In this document: one piece after another, positions 40,708 through 62,044 of the stretch
How the letters are laid out: each line of letters begins with the position of its first letter
How positions within the stretch are numbered: the stretch's first letter is position 1
DNA from: Candidatus Bathyarchaeota archaeon
GTDB lineage: Archaea > Thermoproteota > Bathyarchaeia > Bathyarchaeales > Bathycorpusculaceae
DNA: 64,000 nucleotides
Direction of reading: 5' to 3'
NCBI GenBank assembly: GCA_963777155.1
Contig: CAVZPM010000036.1
Span: 76,483-140,482, forward strand
Made by a program: the position numbers and the translations under genes
Notes under the pieces: generated by a model
Seen by the model: the letters and a program-made list of their open reading frames with translations, nothing else
The model's database searches: none
Told to the model about the DNA's origin: nothing

Positions 40708-42088
40708 TTAATCTCTCAAGGTTATAATCACTGATATATCGTTAACATTGGTTCCTGTTGATCCTGTGTAGATGAGGTCGCCAAGTTTCGAGAAAAAATT
40801 GTAGGAATCATTATTCGCAATATACTTTTCAGGATCCAACCCTAATTGCCTTGCTCGTTTCAGCGTGGATCCGTCAATGATTGCTCCTGCAGCATCTGTT
40901 GCCCCATCAATTCCGTCTGTGTTAAAAGAAGCAATTACGCATTCCTCAGATTCTTTAAGGTTCAAAGCTGCGGACAATGCCAGCTCTTGATTTCTACCAC
41001 CCATCCCTTTTCCCCTAACGGTTACAGTTGTCTCTCCACCAGCGACAATCCCCAGAGATCTAGAAGTATCGTTGCAGACAAAACCTTCATTGGCAAGTTT
41101 TGCTAATGTTTTCCCAACTTCCTTAGCCTCACCCGCCAACATATCAGCTAATAATAATGTGTTAAGTCCTTTAGAACCTAAGAAGTCAATGGCGCCTAGG
41201 CAAGCTGTTCGGTTGTTACCAATCACCAAATTGTGAACTTTTTCAAAAACAGGATCATTTGGTTTAGGTGTTTCCTGAAGCAGACCACTTGCGCCTTCTG
41301 AAAGGATCTTGCGAATAGAAACTGGTATCTTCAACCATAAATCATATTTTTCAAGGATTTTTCTGGCATCACTAAATGTTGACGTGTCAGGAACTGTTGG
41401 ACCAGAGGCGATTGAATCAAGTGGGTCTCCCATGACATCTGAAAGTACAAAGTTTAGGAGCGTAGCTGGATAAGCTTTTTTTGGCAAGCCATCCGCCTTT
41501 GAAAGCTGAAAGATGTTTTCGAACAGCGTTGATTTCGGTTATTTCGGCACCGCTTTTGAGAAGGGCATTCGTAAGTTCTTGTTTATCCTCGAGTGATATG
41601 CCTTTGCGAGGAAGCGGCATAAGACTTGACCCGCCGCCTGAAATCAGGCAAATAACTAAGTCATCTTCTTTGGCTTGTTCGGCTAAGGCCATAATTCGTA
41701 AAGTGCCCGCTACTCCTGCTTCGTCAGGAACTGGGTGGCGGGCTTCGTTTAGTTTTATAACTTTAGTTTTTTGGCTTGCACCATAAGGAATGTTTACAAC
41801 TCCAGCGGTTATATGGTTGCCCAGTATCTCTTCTATGGCTTGCGCCATTTTACCGCCTGCTTTTCCTCCCCCTACAACGTAAACGTGTTTGAACTTCCTC
41901 AAGTCAAACGTGCAGTCTTCAACCACGAACTGATCGTTTTTAACTTTCATTTTTGCCTTAATCAGCCGCTTAGGGTCTGCAGCGTTAACAGCTTGCTCAA
42001 GGCACTGAAGAGCTAGGTCACGGCATCTGCGAATATTTGATGTTTCTCCGTTTTCGATTAACTTATCTCGATTTATAATTTTTACCAT
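40708..42088 (-). CDS. Glycerate 2-kinase (MOFRL family), frameshifted in a 7-A run at 41476-41482
   Basis: GGGKA, HPVPD, ISGGGSSL, RKHLS.KGG, SDVMGD, GGET, GGRNQE and TGTNVND motifs spread over two ORFs. Confidence 0.9.
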
Positions 42089-42304
42089 TCGCTTTACCGT
42101 GAAATTTTTTCTACCAGTCAATATGGATATGCCTAAATAAACAATCTTGTATCGGGCTATTTTAAAAAAAGGATTTGGTTTTGCCCTTTAAATGTTCATA
42201 CGTCGTGGAGTTTCGTTTTTGGATTCATTTGACCGACCATTTAGGTATCTATGGAATTTCAGCCGAAATCGGTTGGATTATCCACAGCCGCAGGAGACCC
42301 AAAA

Positions 42305-46937: not shown

Positions 46938-47157
46938 ACAGAATATAGCTGGCAGCAAAAATAATCCTAATGGAGAAAACTAATCTGTTTTCAACACACA
47001 AAGTGAGGGTTGGGTTGCACGTCCCTAAACTTATTTGTGTTCAAAACCTGTCACAAGAAAGAAATTAATCGTGTTTCAAACGAGATTAACAACTGAACAA
47101 CAAAAAGAAAAACAAAAATTAGACGAGAAAACAAGAACATTCACCATCCTGCCAAGC

Positions 47158-47259
47158 CAATGGGAAATTCACCTAGACCAAGAATGGCGTCAACGATGGA
47201 TAAAAGATGCAGAGAAATGGCAAGATAAAATACCAGAGACAAAAGAATTCCTAAAAAAA
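47158..47259 (+). repeat. Gene-end fragment repeated at 48217-48285 and 59544-59647
   Basis: All three copies encode (QEWR)QRWIxxxEKxQDKxPxxxEFLKK. Confidence 0.85.
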
Positions 47260-47304
47260 TTGGCTTGGATACTTTTCCTGATGAATAAGAATTGTTAATA
47301 TACC

Positions 47305-47838
47305 TTAAAGATTTTTGAGGTAGTCAATTATTTTTAAGTAATCTTCAGCCGAAACGTACCAGCCGCTGTCGCGCATTTCTTTAACTTTCTCTATTAGCTT
47401 TTCCTTGTCGATTTTTCCAGTTGCATAGATTTTGCCCAAGATGTATCCGGTTCCGTGGAGTTCTATTCCCAGAATCCTTGCAACGGATCTGGCGACTTTA
47501 TCGTCAGCTACAGCTACACCATTTAGCTCCTTTGTTAAGCAGAGAATCTCGGCTTCTGCCTCATGTAATGGTTGCATTTCATTTACTGCAGCCATTTCCT
47601 TCACATATTTAAGGTATCCTTTGTTGCTGATGTTGTGAACCTTGATTATTTCTTTTTCGAATAATGTTTCTAAAAGCGACGATTCCGGAGCTCTTTTCCT
47701 TTTGCCTTCGTGGACTACTTCTTCAAACACGCTTGCCGTAGTAAATTTTGGTTGGATAATTTCTTTTAGAAACTCTGCTAAAGAAGACCTTGTCAAGTAA
47801 ATTAGAGGGGTTGAGTCGAAGACCAGCGGTTTAGGCAT
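47305..47838 (-). CDS. PIN-like DUF3368 toxin
   Basis: VFDSTPLIYL, EAEAE and ADDKVAR..A...GI..HGT motifs. Confidence 0.88.
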   Translation of the reverse strand: MPKPLVFDSTPLIYLTRSSLAEFLKEIIQPKFTTASVFEEVVHEGKRKRAPESSLLETLFEKEIIKVHNISNKGYLKYVKEMAAVNEMQPLHEAEAEILCLTKELNGVAVADDKVARSVARILGIELHGTGYILGKIYATGKIDKEKLIEKVKEMRDSGWYVSAEDYLKIIDYLKNL

Positions 47839-48155
47839 TATTGTTCCTTCAAAGCTTTTTCGAAGTCTTCGCGGAAGTCCTCATACGACTACTGGAAAGA
47901 AATTTTTCTTTGCCTCACTATCTCCATCATTTCCCAGAGGGATAAACCTGCGATCTTTGAAGCTTTCCACAGGGTTACTTTTCCGCCACTATAGAGCGCT
48001 AATGCCCTTTCGAGTTTCCTGTCTGCAATTGCCTTTGCTAAGAGTTTTCTGACCACAGTGGCACGGTCTGACTTTTCTTCTTTTTCGATTTCTTCAATGT
48101 CTTTAGCCATGTCTTCAGGAACTCGTGTTGAGACTATTTCGGTCATTGCTTTCAC
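47838..48155 (-). CDS. UPF0175/RHH antitoxin with in-frame TAG at 47889-47891
   Basis: The frame continues SFQ*SYEDFREDFEKALKEQ to a TAA that overlaps the toxin ATG. Confidence 0.8.
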
Positions 48156-48487
48156 TGTTTACAATAACACGTATACGATACGTATAAATGTTTACGGCAA
48201 GGAAACAACCAAATACCAACGCTGGATAAGTGATACAGAGAAGCGGCAAGACAAGAGACCAGGAACAAGAGAGTTCCTAAAAAAGCCAATTCCAAAACGA
48301 GCCACTTTGAAAAATAAATTTTTCAAAATCACTGTGTGATATGATCAACCCAACATTCACAGTTGGTTGTTCCAGATGCGGCTTGAATGTACTTAAGAGA
48401 TGTTAATCTGGTTCCTGCATATGTTGCTGTCAGGACGCAATCACATATGTTTAAGAAAAAGAGGTTGACTAACGTTTTCTGATTAGT

Positions 48488-48718
48488 ATGGCGGAACCAG
48501 ACTTACCCTACATCAAACCGGTACCTGAAATCCCCCCAGAAACCGATGAAGTACTGTCTCCCTCACCAGACGTAAAGAACCCGTTACCTAACCATGAACC
48601 AATCGAAAAGATGGAGACGGGAGCTCTCGATTGTCCAATCTGTGGAAGATCCTTCAAAACCAAGGTTGATCTTGATTTGCACATAATAATGGAGCACAAG
48701 CAAACAAAGAAAGCCTAA
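48488..48718 (+). CDS. Small C2H2 zinc-finger protein
   Basis: CPICGRSF...L..H...EH. Confidence 0.8.
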   Translation: MAEPDLPYIKPVPEIPPETDEVLSPSPDVKNPLPNHEPIEKMETGALDCPICGRSFKTKVDLDLHIIMEHKQTKKA

Positions 48719-48867
48719 GAAGCGCTCGCTTATGGAGAGTTGGCTCCTGAAAGCATGGCACAGCTGTCCAAAGTTGGCCTTTGCTTCCTCCCGGTGCACC
48801 TGTTGTTGGATCCTAGCCCCAATTTACCAGTAAAAACCTGTCACCTCAAGCAGTAGGATAGCTCAAG

Positions 48868-49311
48868 TTAGAGCTCAACGAAGGGGTTTTGTACCTTAAT
48901 GAATCCATATTTATTGAAGTCTCTCACATTTTCAGTATAAATAACGTCTATCTTGTTTACCTTAGCAGAAACAGCCAAGATGCAATCAAAGATACTGGAG
49001 CCCGATAAACTCTTGCTCTTAACGAGGTTGAAGACTTCTCTAGGCACTAACTCGGAAGAAGCGATTTTCTCAATTTCGCCACATTCCCACAGATCCAGGC
49101 ATAACTCAGCGGCTCTATCCGGCGGCAAGGGCAATTCGACCCTCTTAGCGTTGGTAATGACCGCAAAAAACTCGAAAAGCACTTGCTGAGCAATACACGC
49201 TTGTATCTCCCCCGCCATCGCTCTCTCCATTATATTTCTGGCAACCTTTTGGCGAGGGGACGCCTGGTTGTAAGCATGCACTAGAATGTTCGTATCAAGT
49301 AATATCTTCAT
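48868..49311 (-). CDS. vapC: PIN-domain toxin
   Basis: LLDTNILV, FEF, FDCILA and TENVRDF motifs. Confidence 0.9.
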   Translation of the reverse strand: MKILLDTNILVHAYNQASPRQKVARNIMERAMAGEIQACIAQQVLFEFFAVITNAKRVELPLPPDRAAELCLDLWECGEIEKIASSELVPREVFNLVKSKSLSGSSIFDCILAVSAKVNKIDVIYTENVRDFNKYGFIKVQNPFVEL

Positions 49312-49537
49312 AAATCTCTTCTCTAGAAAGGCGCCCTTTTATCCGGCCAAGATTAGGCGGGTTTTCGAGCATTTCACGTGCTAACTTTGCCTTATGGCAT
49401 CCTCGGACTACACTCAGTTTAGCAACTCCTTTTTCTACAACTTCAATGTGTAGTACATCGCCATCTACTAGACCAAGCTTTTCTCTAACTCCTTTGGGTA
49501 AGTAGACTTTGTCCTCGTAGTAAGTAGTTTCAGCCAT
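49295..49537 (-). CDS. AbrB/MazE-type antitoxin
   Basis: KVYLPKGVREKLGLVDGD; overlaps the toxin start. Confidence 0.85.
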   Translation of the reverse strand: MAETTYYEDKVYLPKGVREKLGLVDGDVLHIEVVEKGVAKLSVVRGCHKAKLAREMLENPPNLGRIKGRLSREEIYEDIT

Positions 49538-49851
49538 ATCAACACTGGTTACCCAATGAATTGGGCAAAATATAAACTTTGCCAACACTATTCTTTCCAT
49601 GCCAGTCAGGTTTTTGAGGCTTTTAAGACGCATGAAAAATGCTTAAACTTAGGACGAAAACGGAACCAAAGGCTTAGCGCCGGGAGGGGATCCAAGCACC
49701 AATTTGCCAATACTCTATGTTTTGGCGACTGGATGAGATGATTGTAGCTTTCGATCTTTGCGGCATTCAGCTAGCAGACTATCCGTGATTTAAGACAGAA
49801 TTTGCGGGTAGATTTATTTGTATGTATGTATACATTATGTATTGGTAATAA

Positions 49852-50079
49852 ATGGCGCGACAGATTTCAGTGTCAAACGAAGTTTATGAGCTTCTCTTGA
49901 AACGAAAAGGTAAGAAGAGTTTTTCACAGGTAATCAAAGAAAATCTCTGCCCAAAGGAAGATAAAGTAGACATCATGAGCTTGGCCGGTATCTTAAGGGA
50001 TGATAAGCCGGCGCTTGAGCGATTAAAGGAGCAGATAGCCGCCGAAAGGGAAGCAAATTACGGAAGGATATTTGAGTGA
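49852..50079 (+). CDS. vapB: Archaeal VapB-type antitoxin
   Basis: ISVSNEVYELL...SFSQVI; GTGA overlap with the PIN gene. Confidence 0.85.
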   Translation: MARQISVSNEVYELLLKRKGKKSFSQVIKENLCPKEDKVDIMSLAGILRDDKPALERLKEQIAAEREANYGRIFE

Positions 50080-50451
50080 CATTTCTCGATACGAGTGTCA
50101 TAATAGATTTTTTAGCTGGCGACCAGAAGATTATATCGATAGTGAAAGAAATCTTGAATAAAGAAGAGGTCAAAACCACAACCATAACTGAGTATGAGTT
50201 GCTAAGATACAAGAACAAAATAGGGAAACAAGCTGCTGAAAGATTTCTATCCGGCGTCGATCGTTTGCTCTTTCGACAGAGATGCCGCCAAACAAGCCGC
50301 CAGACTTTTTAAAGAGCTACAAGATGCCGGAAAAATGATTAACGAGAATGATTTGCTTATTGCGGGCATTTCACTGTCACATGATGAGGTCTTACTGACA
50401 AGAGACCAAAAGCTTGCTAGTATTGGCAAAGACAAAATTAGAACTGTCTGA
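50076..50451 (+). pseudogene. vapC: PIN toxin with +1 frameshift near 50258
   Basis: FLDTSVIID...; the shifted frame continues FDRDAAKQAA...DLLIAG...LTRD to TGA at 50451. Confidence 0.85.
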
Positions 50452-50760
50452 GGACGCCTATTTCAGGTCTGTGAAATGAGTATGCTGGTTGCAATCGTGA
50501 TCGCCCTAGGCGCATGTGATTTTGAGAACATAATCAGCATACAAAACTCAAATCATTGTAGCCTTTGTGATGGCAAAGGGATTTAGATACTGTTAAGTTA
50601 ATGACCAAAGATGCTTTGCCCGTAAATTGGGGCCGGGAGGGGAATAATAGCACCAATTTATCAGAAAAAAGCCCTTTCATTTTTTAATTGAACTTGTCAG
50701 TGTTTCGTTGGGTGTTAGAACGTGAAAACTTTAAGTCTTACATTGTGTCTTACGTAATGT

Positions 50761-50985
50761 ATGACAATGAAGACGGTAAGCGTTAGAATATCAGAAGAAG
50801 AAAAACGTCAATTAACAAAATATGGTAAACTATCAGACACATTAAGGGAAGGCATGAAGCTCTACCTAAACAAAAAGAAAACAGACGAGCTGCTACGCAA
50901 ATTGGAAAAACTGCAATCCGAAAACCAAATAAAAACCTCAAGTGAGGAAGAAGTGAAACTGATTCGAGAGGATAGAGAACGCTGA
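50761..50985 (+). CDS. RHH-type antitoxin
   Basis: TVSVRISEE...LIREDRER. Confidence 0.8.
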   Translation: MTMKTVSVRISEEEKRQLTKYGKLSDTLREGMKLYLNKKKTDELLRKLEKLQSENQIKTSSEEEVKLIREDRER

Positions 50986-51365
50986 TAGTCGCCGACAGCA
51001 GCTTCATAGTTGAAGGCCTCCTTAAGAATAAGGAACTACTTGCGAATGAACAGATCGTGGCACCTGAGTTAGCTGTCTACGAAGTTACAAACGCCATATG
51101 GAAGCATGAACATCTTCTGAAAGACATAGAAAACGGCAAACCATACGTATCAATTTTCTACGGTCTAGTAGAAGCTGGGAAAATAAAGATCCTAACCCCA
51201 AACGAAGAGCTAATGCAACAATCATACTCAATCGCAAAAAGACAAGGAATTACAGTATACGATGCAGTTTTTGTTTCTCTAGCAACTAAATTAGGATTGA
51301 CTTTAAAAAGTTACGACAGAGTTCAAATTCGAGCTCTAAAATCTGAGAACAGCATCCGTCAATAA
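50982..51365 (+). CDS. vapC: PIN toxin, apparent CTG start overlapping the antitoxin TGA
   Basis: (L/M)IVADSS, YEVTNAIWK, YDAVFV and SYD motifs; in-frame TAG at 50973 bounds the frame. Confidence 0.8.
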   Translation: MIVADSSFIVEGLLKNKELLANEQIVAPELAVYEVTNAIWKHEHLLKDIENGKPYVSIFYGLVEAGKIKILTPNEELMQQSYSIAKRQGITVYDAVFVSLATKLGLTLKSYDRVQIRALKSENSIRQ

Positions 51366-51505
51366 CTTAGCACCGCAGAGGCCAACCACCCAAGGCGCAC
51401 GAATTTCTTGATTTCTCACACGACCTCAACACACAACCAATGAAATTGTCGAAAAAGTGTGTTTTTGTAGCAAAGTTTTATAGTATCTTTTTCTACTTGT
51501 AATCA

Positions 51506-51793
51506 ATGGTGAAGAAGTTGGCTGTAGCCGTAAAAATTGAGGAAGGAAAAAAAGCAAAAGTAGACCGCTTTCTAGCTTCACTTATACTCCAAGAAAACCT
51601 AAAGATAACCATGCAAGAAGCCGTGGGCATAATGATCGATTACGCGCTTGAAAATGAAGAGGAAATCATAAAGAAATTCAAAGAATTGCCGGCGCTCGAG
51701 GAAGACCCTGCGTGGAAAATGCTTGACAACCCAAAACATTGGGGAATAAAAGACGCGTCAAAAAATATTGATGAATTTGTTTACGGTTGCTGA
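51506..51793 (+). CDS. Putative antitoxin
   Basis: Ends DASKNIDEFVYG; lies directly upstream of a PIN gene. Confidence 0.75.
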   Translation: MVKKLAVAVKIEEGKKAKVDRFLASLILQENLKITMQEAVGIMIDYALENEEEIIKKFKELPALEEDPAWKMLDNPKHWGIKDASKNIDEFVYGC

Positions 51794-51798
51794 ATTAG

Positions 51799-52206
51799 AT
51801 GGGAGTTTTTGTTGACACAGGGATTTTTGTAGCTTTGCATAATGCAGATGACGAATTTCATTCAAAAAGTAAAGATTTAATCAAGTGTGCTTTGAAGGGC
51901 GATTTCGGTCGAATATTCACTTCTGATTACATCATAGATGAGGCCATAACTACAGCTTTGGTAAGAACAAAGAGGCATGACTTAGCCGTTGATTTAGGAA
52001 AACACATCATTGATTCTCCAAGAATCACAAAATTAATGATTGGAGAAGATTCCTTCAAGCAAGCATGGGAGAAGTTTAAAGTGTTTAAGGACAAAACTTT
52101 AAGCTTTACAGATTGCACTTCCATTGCTCTTATCGAAATGAGAGGCATTAAGCACATCATGAGTTTTGACTGCGGTTTTGATGGGTTAGTTTCCAGAATT
52201 CATTAG
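51799..52206 (+). CDS. vapC: PIN-domain toxin
   Basis: FVDTG, IIDE, SFTDC and SFD motifs. Confidence 0.92.
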   Translation: MGVFVDTGIFVALHNADDEFHSKSKDLIKCALKGDFGRIFTSDYIIDEAITTALVRTKRHDLAVDLGKHIIDSPRITKLMIGEDSFKQAWEKFKVFKDKTLSFTDCTSIALIEMRGIKHIMSFDCGFDGLVSRIH

Positions 52207-52244
52207 GAAACCAGGTTTTTCAGCTAATGCTCGTTAAAATTTCG

Positions 52245-52297
52245 TCTTCATTGGGAAAATAGTGTTGCAAACGTTCGAACGGCGACATGCTTTTTAG
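52245..52297 (-). pseudogene. 3' fragment of a PIN gene matching 59984-60037
   Basis: Shares AGTGTTGCAAACGTTCGAAC and flanks, including the stop codon. Confidence 0.75.
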
Positions 52298-52849
52298 GAT
52301 TTCCTCATCATAAGCATGAGGGTAAGAAAGTGATTGAATCAGAAAACATGACGGTTGAAAATGTTTTACAAGAGCTTAAGTTAATAATGAAATAAGTAGA
52401 AAAACCAAATGTGTCTTGCGTATTTTTGAGCTGTTGTTTCGGGTCAGGAATAGAAACAAGCAAGAGACAAACCGTCTGTACCCATGATTTAAATGAGGGA
52501 CGCACAAAGACATTAGCGTGTAGCATCAATGTAACCACGCAATTAGGCTGGTGATATTGCGTGTTTGAATATTTCTAAAGAAAAAATCACCAAACTTGGG
52601 CAATTTTACTTTTTATTAAATTATACAAAGTACAATGATTTATTGATAGTTACTTTGAAGTTACGATGGCATTTTGTGCAGTCATAATCTTGAACCGTAA
52701 AGAGGACATTTCAAAACTACTGTGACTTTTAGGATATGTTTTGGTTTTAACGTTTTTGATAACGAGCGCTAAGTAACAGATCAGTAACGCGCTCTCTGAC
52801 GATAAAACCTTTATTGCTGCAATTACAATATTTTTTTGGTTGTTGTTGA

Positions 52850-53125
52850 ATGCAAGAAGCATATATTCTGATTAACGTTGAATTAGGATGTGAGGAACAA
52901 GTCCGAAGAGATTTGAAAAAAGTTGAAGGAGTTAAAGAAGTATATACCTCCTATGGAGTCTACGACTTTATTGTTAAAGCTGCTAGTGAATCCGCAGGTC
53001 ATTTAGAGAAACTCGTGTTTGATAATTTGAGAAAAATCACGAATGTTAGGTCAACACTTACTCTAATAGTCTCTGAAGATAATACTGCCAGGCATAAGAC
53101 TACGGAAAACAGGCATAACTGTTAG
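52850..53125 (+). CDS. Lrp/AsnC ligand-binding (RAM) domain protein
   Basis: AYILINVELG...GVYDFIVK...VRSTLTL. Confidence 0.88.
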   Translation: MQEAYILINVELGCEEQVRRDLKKVEGVKEVYTSYGVYDFIVKAASESAGHLEKLVFDNLRKITNVRSTLTLIVSEDNTARHKTTENRHNC

Positions 53126-53733
53126 AGACTGATTTAATTCATTCTAAAGGTTAAGGGCTGCAAGTTTTTTTCGAGAGGGCGGAGATTGACAAATAATCTT
53201 CCAACTCCGAATTTTTCAATCTCACAAGATGCTAATTTTTCATTAAGCGATTTAAGCGGAATTCAACAGGCATTTACCCAGCAATTGCGATGAATGCGGA
53301 AACCAGATCGAAGCAGGCAACATCTACTACACCAGACGTCACGGGCTAACGGTACGCTCCAGCTTTTAAGCGTACAACAACCCATCTCTGCCCAGTATAC
53401 AATGAGGCAAAGTTTTGTTAAAATCTGGAAAGTACGACAAAAACAAAGGTTACCTAAGCAATAGGCCAACTGTAAGCATCCCTTTGAAAGAGGCGAGTCT
53501 TTCTCTGTTTATTAGTTCTCCACTTTAAGCCTTCATCTCTGCAAAGAATGCCATGAGGCAAAATTGATTCGGTAACAAATCAATTCTTCATCAATTAGTC
53601 GATCGGAAGTGTGTATGATTGCGTGTCAGTAAGTAAGATCTGGAGTAAGAACAGGTTTTTGCAGGCATAATTAAGAATAATTTTTGAACCTCCTCGATAA
53701 TAATGTCGCAGTTGCCAAAGCTAAAGGTCATTC

Positions 53734-55698
53734 TTATTTACTTTTAATTGGTAGGCGGATTGTAAATGTTGTGCCCTTACCTTCTTGGCTCTCAAAGGAG
53801 ACAGTTCCACCCAATGACTCAGTCATTCGTTTAACAACTGGTAAACCGAAACCCTGTCCTTTAGACTTCGTTGTAAACATTAACGTAAACATTTTATCTT
53901 GTATGTTTTTGGGGATGCCTACACCAGTATCTGAAACGGTTATGACTGTGTCGTTTGCTTCTTTATGAGCCTCTATAGTTAATTTACCCCCCTGCGGCAT
54001 CGCTTGAACAGCATTGGTAACTAAATTGCTTAAGATGCGGTTCAAATAATAGGCATCTGCGCTAATTTTACTTGTATCCTCTGCCACGTTAACGTTTACT
54101 TCAACATTTTCAGGTAAACCATTCTTTGCAATCAAACCTTCAACAATTTGCTTCAAATCACTTTCTTCCGCCTTGGGGTTAAGTGGTCTTGCATAATCTT
54201 GAAGGTCTTGAACGATTTTGTTAATGTAATCAATGTTCTTTTCAATTTCACCCATACTTTCTAATGCATTCTTCTTTTCTTTACTATCTGGAAGGTCAGC
54301 TAATTCTGTCTTAGCCAAGAATAAGTCACCAGTTATAGCCTGTAATGGATTACGAATATCATGTCCAACCATTCCTGCTGTTGCTCCGATAGTGGCTAAA
54401 CGTTCTGCGTCTTTAAGTTGCTTAGTTCTTTCTTCAACAAGTTTCTCTAAGTTGTTTTGGTAATCTTTAAGCTTCGATTCCGCTATCTTGCGTTCAGTAA
54501 TGTCTTCAAAAATCGCTACGAAGTATCCTTTCAGTGGACTGTATATTGAAGCGTGATACCACTTATCAACAACTGGCGAATACCTCTCAATAGAAGTCGC
54601 TGCCCCTGTAAGAGCTACATTTCCATAAATGCCAATCCATTTGGCAGGGTCCTTACTAACCTCAAATAAAACTTCAGTTCCCCTTTTTCCTATCAAGTTT
54701 TCTCTTTTAACTCCAACGAAGTGCTCAGCGGCATCATTTGCGTCAAGGTAAATATAGTCAATTGGGTTTCCTGACGTATCAGTTACAATTTTACAGTAAA
54801 CAAATCCGTCAATCATATTAGAGAAAAAGTCAGCGATTTGCTTACGGTCAGACCTAAATGCTTCTGCCCATTTACCAGCTAAGTCGGCGCCTACTTTTTG
54901 CCTAGAAGCAAGAATAGCAGCCGTTAAGTAAAGAGTTCCAACATACAAACCTATTCTTCCGAGCCAAGTTGGCACATCGCCAATAGCTTTTTGTTCGAAA
55001 GCACTAAACAGCCCAACACTAAAGAGCCCAATGGCAAGAGCATACCAATAAAGCGAAGATGACTTCGACCTCAAGTATTGAATTCCAAAAATTATAGAGG
55101 CAACTGCAAAAAAGAAAACGGCTGAACCCAAAATAACCTGTCTCAGCAAAGTTGGTCCTGACGCTGCAAAGAACAGTGGATAGTAACCCAACAAAGCTAT
55201 GGTCGTATTAACCAATACGAAAATTACAGATGCGGTGTAGGCAATTGCAAGTAGTCTTTTTCGGTTAGGTGTTTTACTTTCCTCATTTCCTGTAAAAGCC
55301 AAAATGGCGCTCAACACTTGTAATGTTGAAGCGACTAAGATGCATGGGTTTGAAAGGGCAATACTTTTGTTTACTGAGAATGTTTGAGCCCAACCAGAAA
55401 TTATCACAGAAACGCCGAATACAATGATGGAACAACTGTTAATAATAACAATCGCTGAACCTTCTTTCAAGAAGCTTTTTGCAGAAATAAATGATATTGC
55501 GAGAGTTGCTGTAGTCCAAAAAATTAAGTTTAGTGACAAGAGCAGATAAGGCGGATTAAAAAATATATCATTTGAAAAACCAAAAACCAAAGTTACAAGA
55601 ATGGCAATCAGAAGCGCAATTACTGGAATTAACGCAAGCTTGGCTGATGGCATTTTATTTAGACAATACAAGCACTCAGTATTTATCACTATAGGCAT
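53734..55698 (-). CDS. Membrane PAS-domain sensor histidine kinase (start possibly 55653)
   Basis: About 8 TM helices, PAS domain, GHDIRNPL H-box, and NAVQA, DTGVG and GQGFGL boxes. Confidence 0.93.
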   Translation of the reverse strand: MPIVINTECLYCLNKMPSAKLALIPVIALLIAILVTLVFGFSNDIFFNPPYLLLSLNLIFWTTATLAISFISAKSFLKEGSAIVIINSCSIIVFGVSVIISGWAQTFSVNKSIALSNPCILVASTLQVLSAILAFTGNEESKTPNRKRLLAIAYTASVIFVLVNTTIALLGYYPLFFAASGPTLLRQVILGSAVFFFAVASIIFGIQYLRSKSSSLYWYALAIGLFSVGLFSAFEQKAIGDVPTWLGRIGLYVGTLYLTAAILASRQKVGADLAGKWAEAFRSDRKQIADFFSNMIDGFVYCKIVTDTSGNPIDYIYLDANDAAEHFVGVKRENLIGKRGTEVLFEVSKDPAKWIGIYGNVALTGAATSIERYSPVVDKWYHASIYSPLKGYFVAIFEDITERKIAESKLKDYQNNLEKLVEERTKQLKDAERLATIGATAGMVGHDIRNPLQAITGDLFLAKTELADLPDSKEKKNALESMGEIEKNIDYINKIVQDLQDYARPLNPKAEESDLKQIVEGLIAKNGLPENVEVNVNVAEDTSKISADAYYLNRILSNLVTNAVQAMPQGGKLTIEAHKEANDTVITVSDTGVGIPKNIQDKMFTLMFTTKSKGQGFGLPVVKRMTESLGGTVSFESQEGKGTTFTIRLPIKSK

Positions 55699-56064
55699 TT
55701 ACTTCTAAGCTGGGGCTACCTTTTTTCTAATAATTATCCCTCCATTTTCCACCCTAATTAAGAATTAGGTTTTGGGCTTCTTAGGGAATAATTATCTCAA
55801 ATAGAAATCTATTTGCTAGTATTTTCAAGTGGTTTTAAGTAAAAACCTCTACCGTTATTGGTGGGTATTGGTTTTGGTTTGAGATTATGAGCAAGACGAT
55901 TGGGACTTGCTTGACCAGTCAGCCAAGCGTGTTTTTGTAGCTCTATCTGAATTTGAGAAAGTCTTTTGCCAAACTCATCGACAACCCTGATCCGTCAAGT
56001 AGGTTTGAGCCTTACGATTTCTATATCGATTTTGTGAATCTTTTCTTATTAGAAGCGGTTTAGG

Positions 56065-57366
56065 TTAACCGGCGGCTGTAGTCATCGGTTGCCAATTGAG
56101 GTTAGATCCAATGTTAGGATTAAAGCTAGCTGATTCTCCTAGCACATACTCTCCAAGACTGTTGGTCCAAACGCTGCTATACCCTGCTGGCAGATCAACT
56201 GTTGTACCCGTAATTGGGTTGTTGTAGGGTTGAATTTCTAAAATCTGGTTGCAAAAGTCCTTAACTAACCCGTCATTTATGTTTTGTCGTTGTTCCCAAT
56301 CTTGCAGGTTTTGGTCGCTTATTTCATTGCTTGTTTGACTCAATATTTGGCTGAGTTGACCTATGCTCTGGATTTGTCTTATTTCATTTTGGATAAGATA
56401 AACCACTAGTTGGTTGTATTTGTTTAGCCAATTCTTGTCTGTCTGTGCTGAAAACGCTATTGTTTGAAAAACTTCTGTTTCTTGGTCCAATTTTCCTTTT
56501 TCAGCTCTAAAAGAGGCTAAATAACTCATGTACCAATTGTTGCTTGTTTGTGTTCCATAGATAGATTCGGTGGGGATTTTTAGTGATTGAATTACACAGT
56601 AGAGTTCATCTTCCATCTGTACTCCGTTTAGTGTGTATTCGACTCTGATTTTTCCGCTTTCTGCTGATGAAGATATGCCCGTGGTTGGCTCTGTTCCTGT
56701 TGTAAAGAGTTGGTCTAGTTCAGGCAGGTAGTTTTCGCTAATTATCTGGAGGTTTTCTGCGTCGGCTCTGTAGGTTGGAAGTATGTTTTGTTCCAGAGCC
56801 TCTATTGGACCTAATGGATTCTGTACTAATGCGCCAAAATAGGTTGATCCTGGAGGGTTGGTTTGTTGGATGAGCGGGTTATCTGTCCAGAAGAAAGCTT
56901 GGTTTGGAAAGATTTCGAATTCTTCGTAGCCATTTGGGTTCCAGGCTCTTATGAATGCAGTAGCTGGCATGGCGGGGTTATCAAAAATCCAGTTTATGCT
57001 TCCTTGAAATTGCCAGTCTGTTGGGATAAGAATCGTGAAAGCGGTAGTTCCAATTCCTTGGGTATCTGTGTAGCTTTCTGTTTTATATTTGACCAATGAA
57101 TCTGAATTGGCTCCTCCGTTTGTATTTGTTGAGGCAGGTGTCGGTCCAGTTGGGGTTGGGGTTTGGGTTGGGTAAGGTATTATGGTTTGATTTGAAGATC
57201 CATTGCTTGAAAGTAAATAGATAATGGGCACTGTTATTATGATTGCAATTAATGCTGCTACGATGATGAGGTTTTTCTTGTTGAGTTTTGTTGGAGGGGG
57301 CGGAAGTGGCGGTGGTGGGGGTAAATCAGCGTTTGTAGTCATAATGATCTTCCTTTTTTCTTTCAA
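56065..57366 (-). CDS. Membrane-anchored extracellular hypothetical protein
   Basis: Poly-Pro N-terminus, single TM helix, PT linker and large globular domain. Confidence 0.8.
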   Translation of the reverse strand: MKEKRKIIMTTNADLPPPPPLPPPPTKLNKKNLIIVAALIAIIITVPIIYLLSSNGSSNQTIIPYPTQTPTPTGPTPASTNTNGGANSDSLVKYKTESYTDTQGIGTTAFTILIPTDWQFQGSINWIFDNPAMPATAFIRAWNPNGYEEFEIFPNQAFFWTDNPLIQQTNPPGSTYFGALVQNPLGPIEALEQNILPTYRADAENLQIISENYLPELDQLFTTGTEPTTGISSSAESGKIRVEYTLNGVQMEDELYCVIQSLKIPTESIYGTQTSNNWYMSYLASFRAEKGKLDQETEVFQTIAFSAQTDKNWLNKYNQLVVYLIQNEIRQIQSIGQLSQILSQTSNEISDQNLQDWEQRQNINDGLVKDFCNQILEIQPYNNPITGTTVDLPAGYSSVWTNSLGEYVLGESASFNPNIGSNLNWQPMTTAAG

Positions 57367-57829
57367 TTCTTTATTGAAATAGAGGTACGGATAAGTTTTT
57401 TGCTTGTTTGAAGTTGTGTTTGCATAAGATTTTGTTCTCCTATCTAAAAATGCCTAAGAACCTATGGGCGCAGTTGTGGTTGGCAGGGAGGAAGTTGAAC
57501 CCCTGTAAAATAACTTCTCAAATCATGGACTGGAAATTGGCTCTATTTTTTACCGGCATTCTCCATCTGAAAACAACAACACTAATGTGCATTGAAAGGG
57601 TTTTGTAACCAAGCAAATCATACTCTTCGACTAACTGCCAAAAGTACAAGCATGCACAGTTAACACCGTAACTTATCGCAATTTTGTATTCTACTTAAGA
57701 ATTATGTTAAAAATGACAAATTATATCCAGTCACCTAAGATAGATCATTCGGTAAAATTCCTTGCTGGTAGTTTAGTAATGATTCTCAAACAGTTAGTTA
57801 TCCAAGTGGCCAAAGAACAATAAATCATG

Positions 57830-57990
57830 CAAATTACACACTAGGGAACAAGTTACTTCAATCCACATGTTAATGTAACAACCTTTGAGGACATTTACTT
57901 TGACAGAAGCACAGGAGTTGCCACCCATTTTGAACAAACCCAAGTTTTCACAACTGATGAGAATTCCACTCAATACAGCATCGGCTCAGT
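57830..57990 (+). pseudogene. Fragment of a surface-protein gene
   Basis: Translates ...TTFEDIYFDRSTGVATHFEQTQVF...; runs into the 57990 site. Confidence 0.4.
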
Positions 57991-58062
57991 AATTAAGAAT
58001 TATGTTGGTGAGAATTATATACTCTAAAAATAATGTGTTATTGATCATTTGGGGGTGAAATT

Positions 58063-58458
58063 ATAGCAAAAAACAAAGCCAAATCTATTGAACCCGGTGG
58101 TGTAGATGAATACATAACAAAATTCCCTAAAGAAGAGCAAGCCAGGTTGGCTGAGATTAGGGCTGCAATACGTGAAGTAGCGCCTGACGCCATAGAAACC
58201 GTCAGTTACTTCCAAATCCCGGGATACTACTTCAAGGGTTATAATTATAATGGGATGTTTGCTTGGTTTAGTTACAAGAAACCAAACGTGCGCCTACACG
58301 TGCGTCCTCCAGTATTACAAGACTATAGAAACGAACTTGCAGGCTATAGTACAACCACAGCTATCGTTAGTTTCCCATTACGCAAAGAGATACCAGTGGC
58401 GTTGGTGAAAAAACTCGTGAAAGCAAGCCTAAAAGTAATGAAAAACAGCTCTAGATAG
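58063..58458 (+). CDS. DUF1801 (YdhG-like) protein; apparent ATA start
   Basis: VDEYI..FP...L..IR..I...AP.A.E..SY..P pattern begins upstream of the ORF-track start; GGGGGTGA lies just before ATA. Confidence 0.8.
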   Translation: MAKNKAKSIEPGGVDEYITKFPKEEQARLAEIRAAIREVAPDAIETVSYFQIPGYYFKGYNYNGMFAWFSYKKPNVRLHVRPPVLQDYRNELAGYSTTTAIVSFPLRKEIPVALVKKLVKASLKVMKNSSR

Positions 58459-58969
58459 TCATTTTCACATGCGCTATCATCAGGGTAATAGGCTATCTTT
58501 TAAAAGTTCTTAGGCATCGTAGAGAGGGAGCTGCCAGGTTCAAACTAAACTTCAAAGAATTGGAAAGAACTATGTGAAATCAACCCAATAATTATCAGGG
58601 GATTTTCGGTGATAATTAAGAATTACGATGGTATTTCCCTTGACAATTTTAGTCTATCTTTTGTAAAGTTCTAGCGTAAAAAGTCCACCGAGCTTTAATT
58701 GGTGCTAAACTTTAACCTTATTTGGGTTTTCTGCACTCAGAACAGTTTGGAAAACCAAGTTTAGCTCGCGACTTCCAAGAGCACGCGCGAAGTTTCATAA
58801 GATTTGGGTCTTTTCAATTGGATAGACAAGCATATTTGCTTAACTTGACACGTTTGTAAGTTGATTTTTGAAAAATTGCTAAAGTTGACAAATAGCGTTA
58901 TCGGGCTTTGCAAAAAACTATATATTAAGTCATACGACAAGAGGAGTTAGCAAGAAACGGCAGCGTTAT

Positions 58970-59209
58970 TTGGAGGAAAAAAGAAAAATGCAAAACGAAG
59001 AAATAGCGAATCTAGCAAAGAAAGTAAGAAACCATTTACCTAACGTGGAATCGTTTCCAATAGCTACAATCTATACCACAATCAAAGAGCAAGAGAAAAC
59101 TAAATTGAATCTACCAGACTTTAAACAATTAATTTATCATCTAACTGGCTGGGACATATCCTTCCAAATCATACGCAGACAACTGGAAATAAACCAGATA
59201 GTATGGTGA
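58970..59209 (+). CDS. Small hypothetical protein
   Basis: 79-aa ORF; GGAGG precedes the internal ATG (MQNEE). Confidence 0.5.
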   Translation: MEEKRKMQNEEIANLAKKVRNHLPNVESFPIATIYTTIKEQEKTKLNLPDFKQLIYHLTGWDISFQIIRRQLEINQIVW

Positions 59210-59306
59210 GCAACGAACGCACTTCTTTTTGGTGACTTGAAATGGCGGATAAGAAATATTATGGTGGCATTGCGTTGTTCCTAATGCAGCATAATGAAAA
59301 AAGTAA

Positions 59307-59463
59307 AGAGGGAGACAAGTATGTGCCGCGTATTTAAGAGAGAAGTCATTGTGTGATAGAACTCTCTCACCAGCCGATCCATAAGTTCTGAAGTGCGCAC
59401 TAAAAAAGATGGGTAAGCGGGTGATATCTCCATTCACAGAGGGTTCGAATCTCACTCCCTTTC
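59307..59463 (+). ncRNA. tRNA-like structured element (not a canonical tRNA)
   Basis: 7-bp AGAGGGA/TCCCTTT stem, T-arm GAGGG-TTCGAAT-CTCAC and internal hairpins. Confidence 0.4.
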
Positions 59464-59671
59464 TACTAATTCTTAGCTCCTGAAAACAACTTAATTAAAT
59501 CCTAAAGGATCCTCTTGATAGGGGAAGGTTTAATCGGCCACTTCAATGGGATATCCATCAGAATCAAGAGTGGCGTCAACGATGGATTAATGAGGCAGAG
59601 AAGTGGCAAGACAAGATTCCGGAGGCAAGGGAATTCCTCAAGAAAGTTGGTCGCAATATTAATTCTTCCTG

Positions 59672-59759
59672 AAGCTCTGCAATCATGCGGGCTTAAAGTA
59701 CATTAACCCAGTGCCAAAAGAAATACTCAAACATTTCAAAGAACAAAACAAGTAAGCAC
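59672..59759 (+). pseudogene. 3' fragment of the PIN gene at 37135-37222
   Basis: 88 bp with 4 mismatches; includes the stop codon. Confidence 0.9.
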
Positions 59760-59986
59760 CGAAGCGTACCAAGCAAAAATAACCAACATAAAAACAACAA
59801 AAAAAAGCCACATAAGCTAAAGTTGAATCTTTTTCTTTCAAGAACTTGGAATAATCATAAACACGTTTTGCAGGAACCTGTAAACCATCCGTAGGTTTTT
59901 TTCGGTTAAGTTTTTTTCCACTTACTGAAGTAACCTTAAAGCTAAATCAGTATGGGTAAGTTGATTTGTTGAAGAGCTTCTTTTCT

Positions 59987-60403
59987 TCACTGAGAAAACA
60001 GTGTTGCAAACGTTCGAACTGCGACGTGTTTTTTAGCCTTCATTTCAAGCTTCTTATCTTCTGTAACTAGTGGGAGCCCTCTTTGTTTGGCGAAGAACAC
60101 ATAGCTTGAATCGTAAAAAGAGAGTGTCTCATTTTGTGCAATTTCCAGGATTTTCTGAAAATCTTCGCCATCGTTTTTCACCTGATCAATCTTGGCAAGA
60201 ATAGTCTGAGACCTGCTTCCTATCTTCTTAGCTTCTTCAGGTGTTAGAAACTTCAAGAGGGTGCTTTCTTTCCAAACTGCGTTGCCTACCTCGTAGAAGG
60301 TTAGATCAAGAATCAAAGAGTCCTGCAGACACTCAACTGTTAATTTGACGTCTGCTTTTTTGATTAAAAGCATAAGCGAGCTTGCGTCTAGAAGATATTT
60401 CAT
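59987..60403 (-). CDS. vapC: PIN-domain toxin
   Basis: LLDASS, YEVGNAVWK, YDSSY and TEDKKL motifs. Confidence 0.92.
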   Translation of the reverse strand: MKYLLDASSLMLLIKKADVKLTVECLQDSLILDLTFYEVGNAVWKESTLLKFLTPEEAKKIGSRSQTILAKIDQVKNDGEDFQKILEIAQNETLSFYDSSYVFFAKQRGLPLVTEDKKLEMKAKKHVAVRTFATLFSQ

Positions 60404-60624
60404 CGTTGGTCTCTTGATTCCCGTACGGCTTTTATTATTTCTTCGTCGGGAATCTTTTCTAGCAGAGTCTTCATTTCGATAATCGCGTCTGTTAGTTCTT
60501 GCCTTTCGCGTTTTCTGATTTCTTCTTCTATTGCTTGTCTTGCGATTTTACTGACGCTTATCTTGTATTTTCTTATCTTTCCTTTTAGAGCTTTGTCAAC
60601 CCTTACAGTAAGTACTTCTGACAT
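60400..60624 (-). CDS. RHH/CcdA-like antitoxin
   Basis: MSEVLTVRVDK...VRESRDQR; ATGA overlap with the toxin. Confidence 0.85.
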   Translation of the reverse strand: MSEVLTVRVDKALKGKIRKYKISVSKIARQAIEEEIRKRERQELTDAIIEMKTLLEKIPDEEIIKAVRESRDQR

Positions 60625-60832
60625 ACAAATATTGTATGGCAAATAACGTATATAAAATTATTGTTGTGCAATATTAAAATAACCAACATAAGAATCGCAC
60701 CCTAAAAATCCTTTGTGATTGAGCTTTGCGTTTTTTTGGTTTCTTGTTATTTTGATTAACCTCTGAAGTCTTATTGTTTTTGGTGAATTGTGAAATAAAT
60801 TAAAACTGATTTTACTTAGCTTTGAGCCCCTA

Positions 60833-60973
60833 AACCCGTTACCTAATCATGAACCAATGGAAAAAATGTAGACAGAAGCTCTATATTGTCCAATCTGTGG
60901 AAGAGTCTTCAAAACCAAAATTGATCTTGATCTGCACATCATAACGGAACACAAGCAAACTAAGAAAGCCTAA
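60833..60973 (+). pseudogene. 5'-truncated copy of the C2H2 zinc-finger gene 48488-48718
   Basis: NPLPNHEPMEKM*TEALYCPICGRVFKTKIDLDLHIITEHKQTKKA; similarity extends ~45 bp past the stop. Confidence 0.88.
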
Positions 60974-61080
60974 ATAGCGCCCGTTAGTAGAAGGTTGGCT
61001 GTGAAAGCACGGCAGCAGTCATTTAGATATCGGCTGGTAGGTTATTGTTCCTTTGTTTACAGTTGTTTTCAGGGTTATGG

Positions 61081-61143
61081 TGCCTCAATGATGCGTTTGC
61101 CTATGGGTAAACCCAAACCCATACCTAGCACTTTAGATGAAAG
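61081..61143 (-). pseudogene. HATPase G2-box fragment
   Basis: LSSKVLGMGLGLPIGKRIIEA. Confidence 0.6.
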
Positions 61144-61150
61144 TTGTCAA

Positions 61151-61555
61151 TTAACCACGTATTTTTAGAAGCTCAACGTTCAGGTTATTGAATTCTTTAT
61201 CGCTACCAACTACGAGTTTGGTTTTTAGTGTCTCGGCTGTAGCAACTGCGAATGCGTCGGCAATTGACATTGCATGGTCACATTTTATTTTTGCTGCCGC
61301 ACGCCACAAACCATCATCATTAATGGGAACAATCTTCAAACCATAAAGTCGCAGGTTTCTTTGCTTTTCCTCAGCTATTTTAGGGCTCACTCTTGACAAA
61401 ATATAGTAAATTTCTGTTAGATTTAGAATGTTTATGTAGCCTTCAATCTCTCCGTTCTGAACCTTTTCAAGATTATCTCTTACTAGTTCGGCTCCAACTT
61501 CACCTAGAAAGAAAGCCAAAATGGCTTCAGAGTCAAATGTTAGACGATCCGGCAC
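61151..61555 (-). CDS. vapC: PIN-domain toxin
   Basis: FDSEA, NLTEIYY, SIADAFA and GSDKEF motifs. Confidence 0.92.
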   Translation of the reverse strand: MPDRLTFDSEAILAFFLGEVGAELVRDNLEKVQNGEIEGYINILNLTEIYYILSRVSPKIAEEKQRNLRLYGLKIVPINDDGLWRAAAKIKCDHAMSIADAFAVATAETLKTKLVVGSDKEFNNLNVELLKIRG

Positions 61556-61811
61556 GTTTAATCCACTCTTTGTCTTTTACGAATTCTTCTTTTCGGACCT
61601 CTTTTAGCAATTCTTGTGCAGTTTTTCCTTTGAAAACAGTTTTCAATGAACCTAAATCATCATTTGGCGCAGGTAGAGGTTTTAGGATTATTCCTTTTTC
61701 ATTTTCTTCTATAAACACTTTATCTTTGATACCGTACTTCTTTCTGATTCTCTTTGGAATAGTTGCCTGCCCCTTCTTTGTAACGCTAACAACTTCAACC
61801 ATTGATGCCAC
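61533..61811 (-). CDS. AbrB/MazE-type antitoxin
   Basis: VTKKGQATIPKRIRKKYGI. Confidence 0.92.
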   Translation of the reverse strand: MASMVEVVSVTKKGQATIPKRIRKKYGIKDKVFIEENEKGIILKPLPAPNDDLGSLKTVFKGKTAQELLKEVRKEEFVKDKEWIKRAGSSNI

Positions 61812-62044
61812 CAGTAATACCTAATATTTTGGTAATACTTAAAACTTATTGATTAACTATTTTTTTCTTTCCAACATTTTTTCAATGGTACACATTTAAA
61901 TTAATAACATGATTTTATATAGCTCTGAGCGCCAATGTATGATGTTTATTCTGAATCAGAAATATCCCGATGACAAGCAGTTTACCGCAGTTTTTCCATT
62001 AAAACGCCGATTATCTTCTAAAAACAATTTTTCAGTTGTCCAAA

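Follow-up and report, generated by a model that had tools for sequence, protein, structure and literature searches.

The described systems closest to the locus considered here are integrons including the chromosomal superintegrons, elements that use Xer and dif, and lambda-type elements integrated in tandem at one attB. In integrons, the attC crossover takes place at the outer R' box, and whole attC hairpins persist between the cassettes; clusters of attC sites lacking an integrase are known as CALINs. Integrative mobile elements exploiting Xer (IMEXs) integrate at dif and also do so in tandem, whereas the pdif modules of Acinetobacter are located on plasmids between two sites of opposite orientation. 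The archaeal integrons that have been described have canonical attC and IntI, and the main text of that report is silent on Bathyarchaeota (PMC9668308). Archaeal dif sites are described as being flanked by AT-rich inverted repeats, and some archaea are stated in the same source to lack xerA (PMC2958812). We analyzed a window, i.e., a whole stretch of 64,000 nucleotides of a Candidatus Bathyarchaeota archaeon (assembly GCA_963777155.1, contig CAVZPM010000036.1, positions 76,483 to 140,482), in which five co-oriented copies of the 13-mer TAATTAAGAATTA, numbered 1 to 5 below, bracket small units that mostly consist of one gene. An earlier note made from the sequence of the window had proposed that these copies belong to an archaeal Xer/tyrosine-recombinase cassette system. 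We put the probability that the sites form a recombination-site cassette array at roughly two in three, and the most likely role of the TAATTAAGAATTA sites is that of crossover points for the serial insertion of small single-gene cassettes into the chromosome of this archaeon of peat and wetlands. No published account of such a system was found in the literature on Bathyarchaeia integrons and integrases or on archaeal integrons, and an integron-like cassette collection of this kind does not seem to have been described so far.

Anatomy of the site and comparison with known systems

The 13-mer, which the earlier note took as the site itself, is real and co-oriented but is merely the centre of a larger composite of ~70 bp with the inverted outer boxes ATAATTATC ... 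GATAATTAT. In the aligned copies from the window genome, the composite consists of a P arm (AATAATTATC-n5-ATTTTC-n5), the core (O), and a P' arm (TGTTRGnAAT-n5-GATAATTAT). The two outer boxes repeat the palindromic ATAATTAT in inverted orientation, and the centre of each is ~27.5 bp away from that of the core. If the composite is taken to be a recombinase site, the sequence in and around the core is ..CATAA / TTAAGAA / TTA-TGTTRRnA, and the spacer would be 7 bp long; dif-type sites have two inverted arms of ~11 bp with a 6-bp spacer. The right half-site, TTA-TGTTRRnA, shows good conservation and a likeness to the XerD arm of dif in E. coli; the sequence TTATGTTAAAT, which the earlier note had named as this arm, agrees with the table of PMC2731167, where the XerD (right) arm of E. 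coli K12 dif is given as TTATGTTAAAT, GGTGCGCATAATGTATATTATGTTAAAT. The left half-site is weakly conserved, and just a subset of the P arms ends in CTAACC(-TAA), the inverse of TTA-TGTTAG. Full composites fold into imperfect hairpins of −5.5 to −9.5 kcal/mol (z of −0.4 to −4.1); site 2, folded as single-stranded DNA, forms one of −8.8 kcal/mol (z of −1.75). The possibility that ATG-TTR-GnA... after the core opens a leader peptide mini-open reading frame (ORF) was rejected, as the variable 5-nt block is not codon-like. A perfect 10-bp palindrome, GATAATTATC, made up of the arm box and both flanking bases, also occurs in G000 without a nearby core (C7:11450, C7:22280, C9:132040, C13:47518, C17:25841, and C22:17885).

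With lambda-type elements, the sites have in common a core that is the same in attB and attP, hybrid ends of the form host flank-core-P' and P-core-host flank, arms that are present only on the element side, and internal sites with both arms after tandem insertion; an integrase gene adjoins the core in two genomes (G022 and G091). However, most of the units described here span only 80 bp to ~4 kb and carry neither integrase nor excisionase, the attP-like site is ~70 bp long and nearly symmetric, at least seven chromosomal loci including ilvC serve as targets, and insertion at ilvC is into a promoter region rather than a tRNA gene.

The likeness to integrons lies in mostly single-gene accessory cassettes separated by a repeated imperfect palindrome that is very uniform within the lineage, in the toxin-antitoxin genes close by, and in the fact that most arrays lack an adjoining integrase, as CALINs do. 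In contrast to integrons, IntI and an attI next to an integrase were not found here, the site is not built like attC, and the cassette genes lie on both strands within the arrays, so that there is no common promoter. The half-sites at the array ends also point to an exchange at the centre of the palindrome, unlike that of attC.

The Xer/dif systems, represented by IMEXs and pdif modules, likewise comprise integrase-less elements bounded by short dif-like sites, and the right half-site described above compares with the XerD arm, while the left side often reads ..CATAA. Nevertheless, the spacer would be 7 bp here and not 6 bp, the left arm is poorly conserved, and the sites are present at many loci instead of at a single terminus site. 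Unlike those of the pdif modules, the sites are repeated in direct orientation, as is the case in each of the 14 clusters, several of which are on long chromosomal contigs.

Insertions at the ilvC locus

The strongest comparison is offered by ilvC. On contig C11 of the window genome, ilvC and a DUF3795 gene are 2.8 kb apart, and three sites divide this interval. The core or a close variant of it is present ~40 bp upstream of the ilvC ATG in all 20 genus genomes examined, with the upstream flank conserved up to the core. Five of these genomes (G003, G008, G016, G017, and G019) are empty, as their sequence runs from the host flank through O directly into a shared host flank, 'tccctnaaaa'. In G019, DUF3795 starts within ~75 bp of the ilvC core, and the empty site is located in a divergent promoter region. 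To the right of the ilvC core, a P' arm follows in 12 of the 20 genomes, a partial arm in one, and an integrase gene in two, the five others being the empty ones. In six of the eight multi-site ilvC arrays, the last site consists of a P arm or its relic, the core, and the host flank that is also seen in the empty genomes. A weak P'-like box is still present at the last recognised site of G014 and G091, suggesting that further units may follow there. The sites between cassettes often have both arms.

Where DNA is inserted at ilvC, the core is thus found duplicated and the arms point inward. The layout flank-O-P' ... P-O-flank with a duplicated core is what a P-O-P' circle would leave after recombining with a bare core, and the shared core, the hybrid ends, and the five empty alleles together constitute the attB/attL/attR topology by which lambda-type integration is recognised. 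The inserted DNA itself is variable: the ORFs of at least 80 amino acids (aa) between ilvC and a conserved distal block (DUF3795, ornithine carbamoyltransferase, and D-aminoacyl-tRNA deacylase) are genome specific except for two families, and they encode, among others, DUF1801, PEMT-like methyltransferase, NosD-like proteins, DUF7000, GNAT, and an HTH-DUF2178 pair. Beyond ilvC, there are at least six conserved left flanks that are joined to different P' arms in different genomes, indicating that there are several landing loci.

Cassette boundaries between species and in natural populations

The earlier note had suggested examining whether breakpoints of gene presence and absence fall at the sites. 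Between species they coincide with the cores. The DUF1801 cassette of the window (58001-58633) has a counterpart in another species with 94.7% identity over 637 bp, in which the neighbours differ, and the homology stops at the cores on both sides. A conserved gene-less mini-cassette, the length of which is 80 bp from core start to core start both on contig C12 and elsewhere among the species, was seen in at least 10 contexts (copies include G000:C12:383-475, L047 6012-6105, L049 13481-13573, and L051 7939-8032). Its order is core, P' arm, AAATTCCTTGCTGGTAGTT..ATTTGGCTCAG, and core; it often heads arrays and may be a distinct functional site.

Metagenome contigs also diverge right after cores. 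Four wetland or soil runs (among them X1, X2, and X4) were used; none contained as much as half of the words sampled from the stretch and the cover of the units was uneven, and the interpretation is confined to the contig-covered parts, among which the unit with the 433-aa gene was the best covered of four units in all four runs. Seven contigs, three of X2 and four of X4, follow the window up to exactly 58625 and then continue into other arms with GATAATTAT, a contig of X1 diverges after 57708, likewise into another arm, and two contigs of X4 part from the window after 55771.

Window positions 57229-59398 are duplicated on contig C12:1-1708 (2.2 kb, 95-98% identity, two to three indels), and this copy is either a strain variant binned into the metagenome-assembled genome (MAG) or a true segmental duplication. 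A 161-bp piece of the window (58489-58649), which holds site 5, is missing from C12 and is flanked by 27-bp imperfect direct repeats. An insert of ~200 bp in the mini-cassette of the window stops ~10 bp to the left of the core of site 4. These two indels resemble repeat-mediated or illegitimate events, and they bring up the possibility that no dedicated enzyme exists and that composites of ~40-70 bp are dispersed repeats shuffled by homologous or microhomology-mediated recombination and replication slippage. The composites share 20-40 bp of identity, which is sufficient for short-patch homologous exchange. However, the empty ilvC alleles share just the 13-bp core with the cassettes, and yet at least 13 genomes have insertions precisely there with the core duplicated. 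Moreover, sites recognised by a protein typically show this combination of an asymmetric, co-oriented core and symmetric arm boxes at a fixed spacing, and integrase-bearing elements use the same core. We therefore regard shuffling without a dedicated enzyme as quite unlikely and site-specific recombination as the better account of the insertions.

The array in the window

All five copies of the core lie on the + strand, where the earlier note had located them. Five cores with at most one mismatch were found in the window against 0.29 expected, a number reached by none of 100 shuffles; with at most two mismatches, the nine cores found are not significant (5.1 expected, nine or more in 9 of 100 shuffles). 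Site 1 (53668..53704) contains the core TAATTAAGAATAA with one mismatch at 53668-53680 and a degenerate P' box, GATAATAAT, at 53696-53704; it has no P arm and hence resembles an attL or the head of an array. Site 2 (55729..55796) is a full composite, with the P box AATAATTATC at 55729-55738, ATTTTC at 55744-55749, an exact core at 55755-55767, and the inverted outer box ATAATTATC at 55788-55796; on its P' side, only the outer box is present and TGTT is absent. The core of site 3 (57692..57704), TACTTAAGAATTA, has one mismatch, preceded by a decayed P arm (TAACTTATC-n3-ATTTTG) and followed on the right by TGTT only. Site 4 (57990..58002) is an exact core without a P arm, followed by a variant P' box, TGTTGGTGAGAATTATATAC (GAGAATTAT in the site typing), which may also serve the DUF1801 gene as its TATA box. 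Site 5 (58587..58649) has the P arm AATAATTATC at 58587-58596, ATTTTC at 58602-58607, an exact core at 58613-58625, and a weak P' arm that extends to GACAATTT at 58649. The extension AATAATTATC-n5-ATTTTC-n5-core reported in the earlier note is indeed identically spaced at 55729 and 58587, and the right arms TTATGTTAAA (57702) and TTATGTTGGT (58000) are both in place.

As had been noticed, the sites bracket four units. The first holds a membrane histidine kinase gene on the − strand (53734..55698; HisKA and HATPase_c domains, 654 aa), the C-terminal part of which has ~72% DNA identity to kinase genes adjoining sites in other genus genomes. The second holds the gene of a 433-aa protein on the − strand (56065..57366) with a proline-rich N terminus and a hydrophobic stretch, for which no Pfam family was found. 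The third is the mini-cassette (57705..57989, + strand), which is non-coding and carries the ~200-bp insert at about 57784-57980 that had been described as a gene fragment. The fourth contains the DUF1801 gene on the + strand (58063..58458). The start codon of this gene (58063-58065) is ATA in the window and ATG in the near-identical copy on contig C12, and two of the metagenome runs each include one contig with a G at 58065; the window copy may have lost its start codon or may use a rare one.

No tRNA gene was found at the array, and positions 53000-59600 gave no Rfam match at E values up to 0.1. A conserved counterpart of positions 52300-53667 was sought in 60 other genus genomes and none was found except for one 91% match to an AsnC-type ORF, so that no attB flank can be defined for the window array.

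It has also been considered that the core and the ATAATTAT boxes form a promoter or operator module, that is, TATA-like elements or sites bound by a transcription factor as a dimer, such as an Lrp/AsnC-type regulator of ilvC, with the module being common to many accessory genes. This idea agrees with the constant position of the core upstream of ilvC in all 20 genomes, with the distances from site 2 to the kinase ATG (57 nt) and from site 4 to the DUF1801 start (60 nt), with the nature of all three boxes as AT-rich palindromes ~27.5 bp apart from centre to centre, and with the presence of an ORF with an AsnC-type ligand-binding domain ~540 bp to the left of site 1. However, sites 1 and 5 are downstream of genes (54 and 155 nt after stop codons), site 3 is 326 nt upstream of the nearest start, and the distance from cassette genes to sites ranges from 60 to 380 nt in other genomes. 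The strict co-orientation of the sites, whatever the strand of the gene, is also unexpected for an operator. In 6 of 10 genomes that lack a core upstream of DUF3795, this gene keeps its own proximal promoter-like sequence, and regulation gives no account of half-sites around variable DNA or of empty alleles. The earlier note, which had named an operator as its alternative, would have given up its own reading if the sites occurred only at fixed promoter distances of conserved genes and never at synteny breaks; the distances are not fixed, and the sites do coincide with synteny breaks. A regulatory module therefore fits the evidence less well than recombination sites do, and we consider it unlikely.

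Distribution and orientation of the sites

The window genome is a MAG of 2.29 Mb in 39 contigs with 90.6% completeness, in which no 16S rRNA was found. It contains 8 exact cores and 20 cores with at most one mismatch. A profile of the composite recovers just its 11 source copies at four loci (contigs C11, C12, C33, and C36), with the next match at an E value of 0.019. Among other genomes, the exact core is present in 16 of 24 of the same genus and in none of 16 from other families of the order, and a control with the reversed pattern gave zero to two matches per genome. In four genomes without an exact core, variants of it, among them TAAATAAGAATTA and TAATTAAGAATTG, occupy the corresponding position at ilvC. 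In 14 clusters with 32 exact cores, the orientation is uniform inside each cluster, which has a probability of ~2^-18 under random orientation, a value that overstates the case since several clusters are orthologous and not independent. Several clusters are located on long chromosomal contigs.

When 185,579 species, represented by one genome each, were scanned for core-N16-GATAATTAT, 113 stretches matched. Among the 80 matches listed, 77 are titled as Candidatus Bathyarchaeota or Bathyarchaeia MAGs. The remaining ones listed are an 'uncultured archaeon' with a typical arm, a 'Limnocylindrales' contig with an ilvC-type flank, which looks misbinned, and a Marithrix match that was rejected as a chance tandem repeat. 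The composite of core and P' arm is thus almost confined to Bathyarchaeia MAGs.

Viral contigs were considered as carriers and rejected, as a scan for the core followed by TGTT gave 36 stretches with arm boxes in none, which look like chance or unrelated matches. On viral contigs from IMG/VR (~50 kb, GC content of 0.42; L055, L060, and L065), TAATTAAGAATT or a variant with one mismatch stands directly before ATG, as it does for three successive ORFs of L055 (4362, 5005, and 5326). As arm boxes are absent from this viral motif, a relationship to the sites in archaea is improbable.

The distribution bears on a further possibility, namely, that the ~70-bp composite is a non-autonomous transposon resembling a miniature inverted-repeat transposable element (MITE), which spreads into intergenic DNA by means of its terminal inverted repeats, ATAATTATC / GATAATTAT. 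As might be expected of such an element, full composites are imperfectly palindromic, their terminal repeats are 9 bp long, and the window MAG has 11 copies at four loci. However, the copies are found only in co-oriented clusters and are not dispersed, target-site duplications around the composites were not seen, and the arms of the half-sites point into the variable DNA, which is the reverse of an interrupted MITE. In addition, the sole insertion or deletion of a composite that was seen (161 bp) far exceeds the length of the composite. A MITE-like origin is accordingly highly improbable.

Search for the recombinase

Tyrosine recombinases are encoded in 39 of 40 other genus genomes. Six genus integrases of ~300 aa have 21-45% mutual identity and reach 49-95 bits with the XerA model, the cut-off of which is 220. 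A canonical XerA (NF040815 above cut-off) was found in 0 of 41 genus genomes compared with 4 of 14 control genomes. This absence above the cut-off (G001-G056) despite common tyrosine recombinases of the mobile-element type raises the question of how chromosome dimers are resolved. From the system put forward in the earlier note, the delimitation of mobile single-gene modules by the sites holds, whereas the assignment to Xer as stated there is not supported, in view of the finding of no canonical XerA in these genomes, the co-orientation of the sites, the spacer, which would be 7 bp, and the poorly conserved left arm.

When integrases near exact cores were compared by position, only one held up. 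In G022, the gene of a divergent tyrosine integrase of at least 355 aa begins 71 bp to the right of the ilvC core (G022:C13); its best Pfam match is Phage_integrase (E value of 1e-9), and sequences of solved structures gave no match to the integrases at the ilvC core. The homologue in G091 is at the same position, contains internal stop codons, and is 62-71% identical over two aligned pieces. It heads an element of ~10.3 kb, with ORFs without a Pfam family, that ends at a second core variant with a P' arm. Among 13 other homologues of the G022 integrase that were examined (39-61% identity), the core adjoins only that of G091, and 12 have no core, including those in G001, G019, and G023. Two further candidates were discarded: in G013:C26, the exact core near the integrase is inside a 934-aa ORF and is probably there by chance, and the nearest site to an integrase remnant in G010:C1 is 17 kb away. 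A tyrosine recombinase is our best guess for the enzyme, on the grounds of the half-site likeness and the integrases at the ilvC core, neither of which is proof.

Proposed mechanism

The data presented above establish the anatomy of the sites, their restriction to one lineage, the attB/attL/attR topology, and the breakpoints at cores; beyond this, we infer circular intermediates, a class of recombinase, and a role for the arms as follows. In one genus of Bathyarchaeia, TAATTAAGAATTA would be the shared crossover core (O) of a lineage-specific site-specific recombination system. Cassettes of 80 bp to a few kb, mostly with one gene in either orientation, would exist transiently as circles, each of which would bear an attP-like composite, P-O-P'. 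Recombination inside O with an arm-less chromosomal core (attB), with the strand exchange probably within TTAAGAA, would insert the cassette and place the P' arm beside the left copy of the core and the P arm beside the right one. Repeated insertion into either core would then give rise to co-oriented tandem arrays, the internal sites of which have both arms. The window array would comprise at least four such units, namely, those of the kinase, the 433-aa protein, the mini-cassette with its insert, and DUF1801. A tyrosine recombinase that acts in trans is the most probable enzyme, and the ATAATTAT boxes may bind its arm-binding domain or an accessory protein.

Several observations weigh against this proposal. 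All the genomes are MAGs, in which repeats can be misassembled. No recombinase has been linked to the cassettes: PF00589 and PF00239 had no match in the window genome, which is 90.6% complete; tblastn with seven integrase queries revealed no integrase homologue in 162 site-bearing loci; and Pfam scans detected no integrase in the ORFs at seven other arrays or in the window ORFs from 36 kb on. The integrase elements of G022 and G091 share the core but not the P and P' arms with the cassettes. In a catalogue of 190 cores, which is biased by the search pattern, 101 have a P' arm and no P arm, meaning that many sites have no recognisable P arm. The conservation of the core at ilvC, the centre of which is ~47 nt from the ATG, could simply reflect the ilvC promoter. 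The two indels between the window and C12 (161 bp and ~200 bp) do not run from core to core. Finally, with regard to circular forms, one back-joint, from 58607 to 57990 in X2, may be a circle junction, a tandem copy, or the shared consensus of the P arms, and was therefore not used as evidence.

Going beyond the window, we tentatively suggest, at slightly less than even odds, that this Bathyarchaeia genus has a gene capture system that serves the purpose of an integron but is built differently. It would use double-stranded att sites resembling those of dif and lambda, with a 13-bp asymmetric core and symmetric arm boxes, and several platforms including the ilvC promoter; its integrase-less cassettes would be served in trans, with no canonical XerA found.

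Surroundings of the array

The array is enclosed in an accessory island (~47000-62000) dense in toxin-antitoxin genes, which encode several PIN domains, VapB, MazE, UPF0175/DUF3368, and a CcdA-like antitoxin. To the right of site 5, a repeat of ~670 bp (58792-59459) with a 73-aa ORF (58989-59209) is present in three copies in the MAG (one on C36 and two on C12) with 94-97% identity, and an additional copy with 75% identity is on C38. The metagenome depth peaks at 59028-59228, and contigs of three runs diverge just past the stop codon of the 73-aa ORF (59209/59210), which suggests another variable junction. Elsewhere in the window, two overlapping ORFs at 40711-42121 match DUF4147, the second one also MOFRL (glycerate-kinase type), and the pair looks like one gene split by a frameshift.

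Significance

Bathyarchaeia are abundant in peat, wetlands, and sediments, where they are uncultured, and little is known of the routes by which their genomes gain and lose genes. If true, a lineage-wide cassette system would provide a concrete mechanism for the turnover of accessory genes, with a simple searchable site and natural alleles with empty, single, and multiple inserts. It would represent an archaeal counterpart to integrons with a different mechanism, and its short defined att sites could be tried for DNA insertion in archaea for which a genetic system is lacking. Hypervariable loci in metagenomes could also be flagged by means of the sites.

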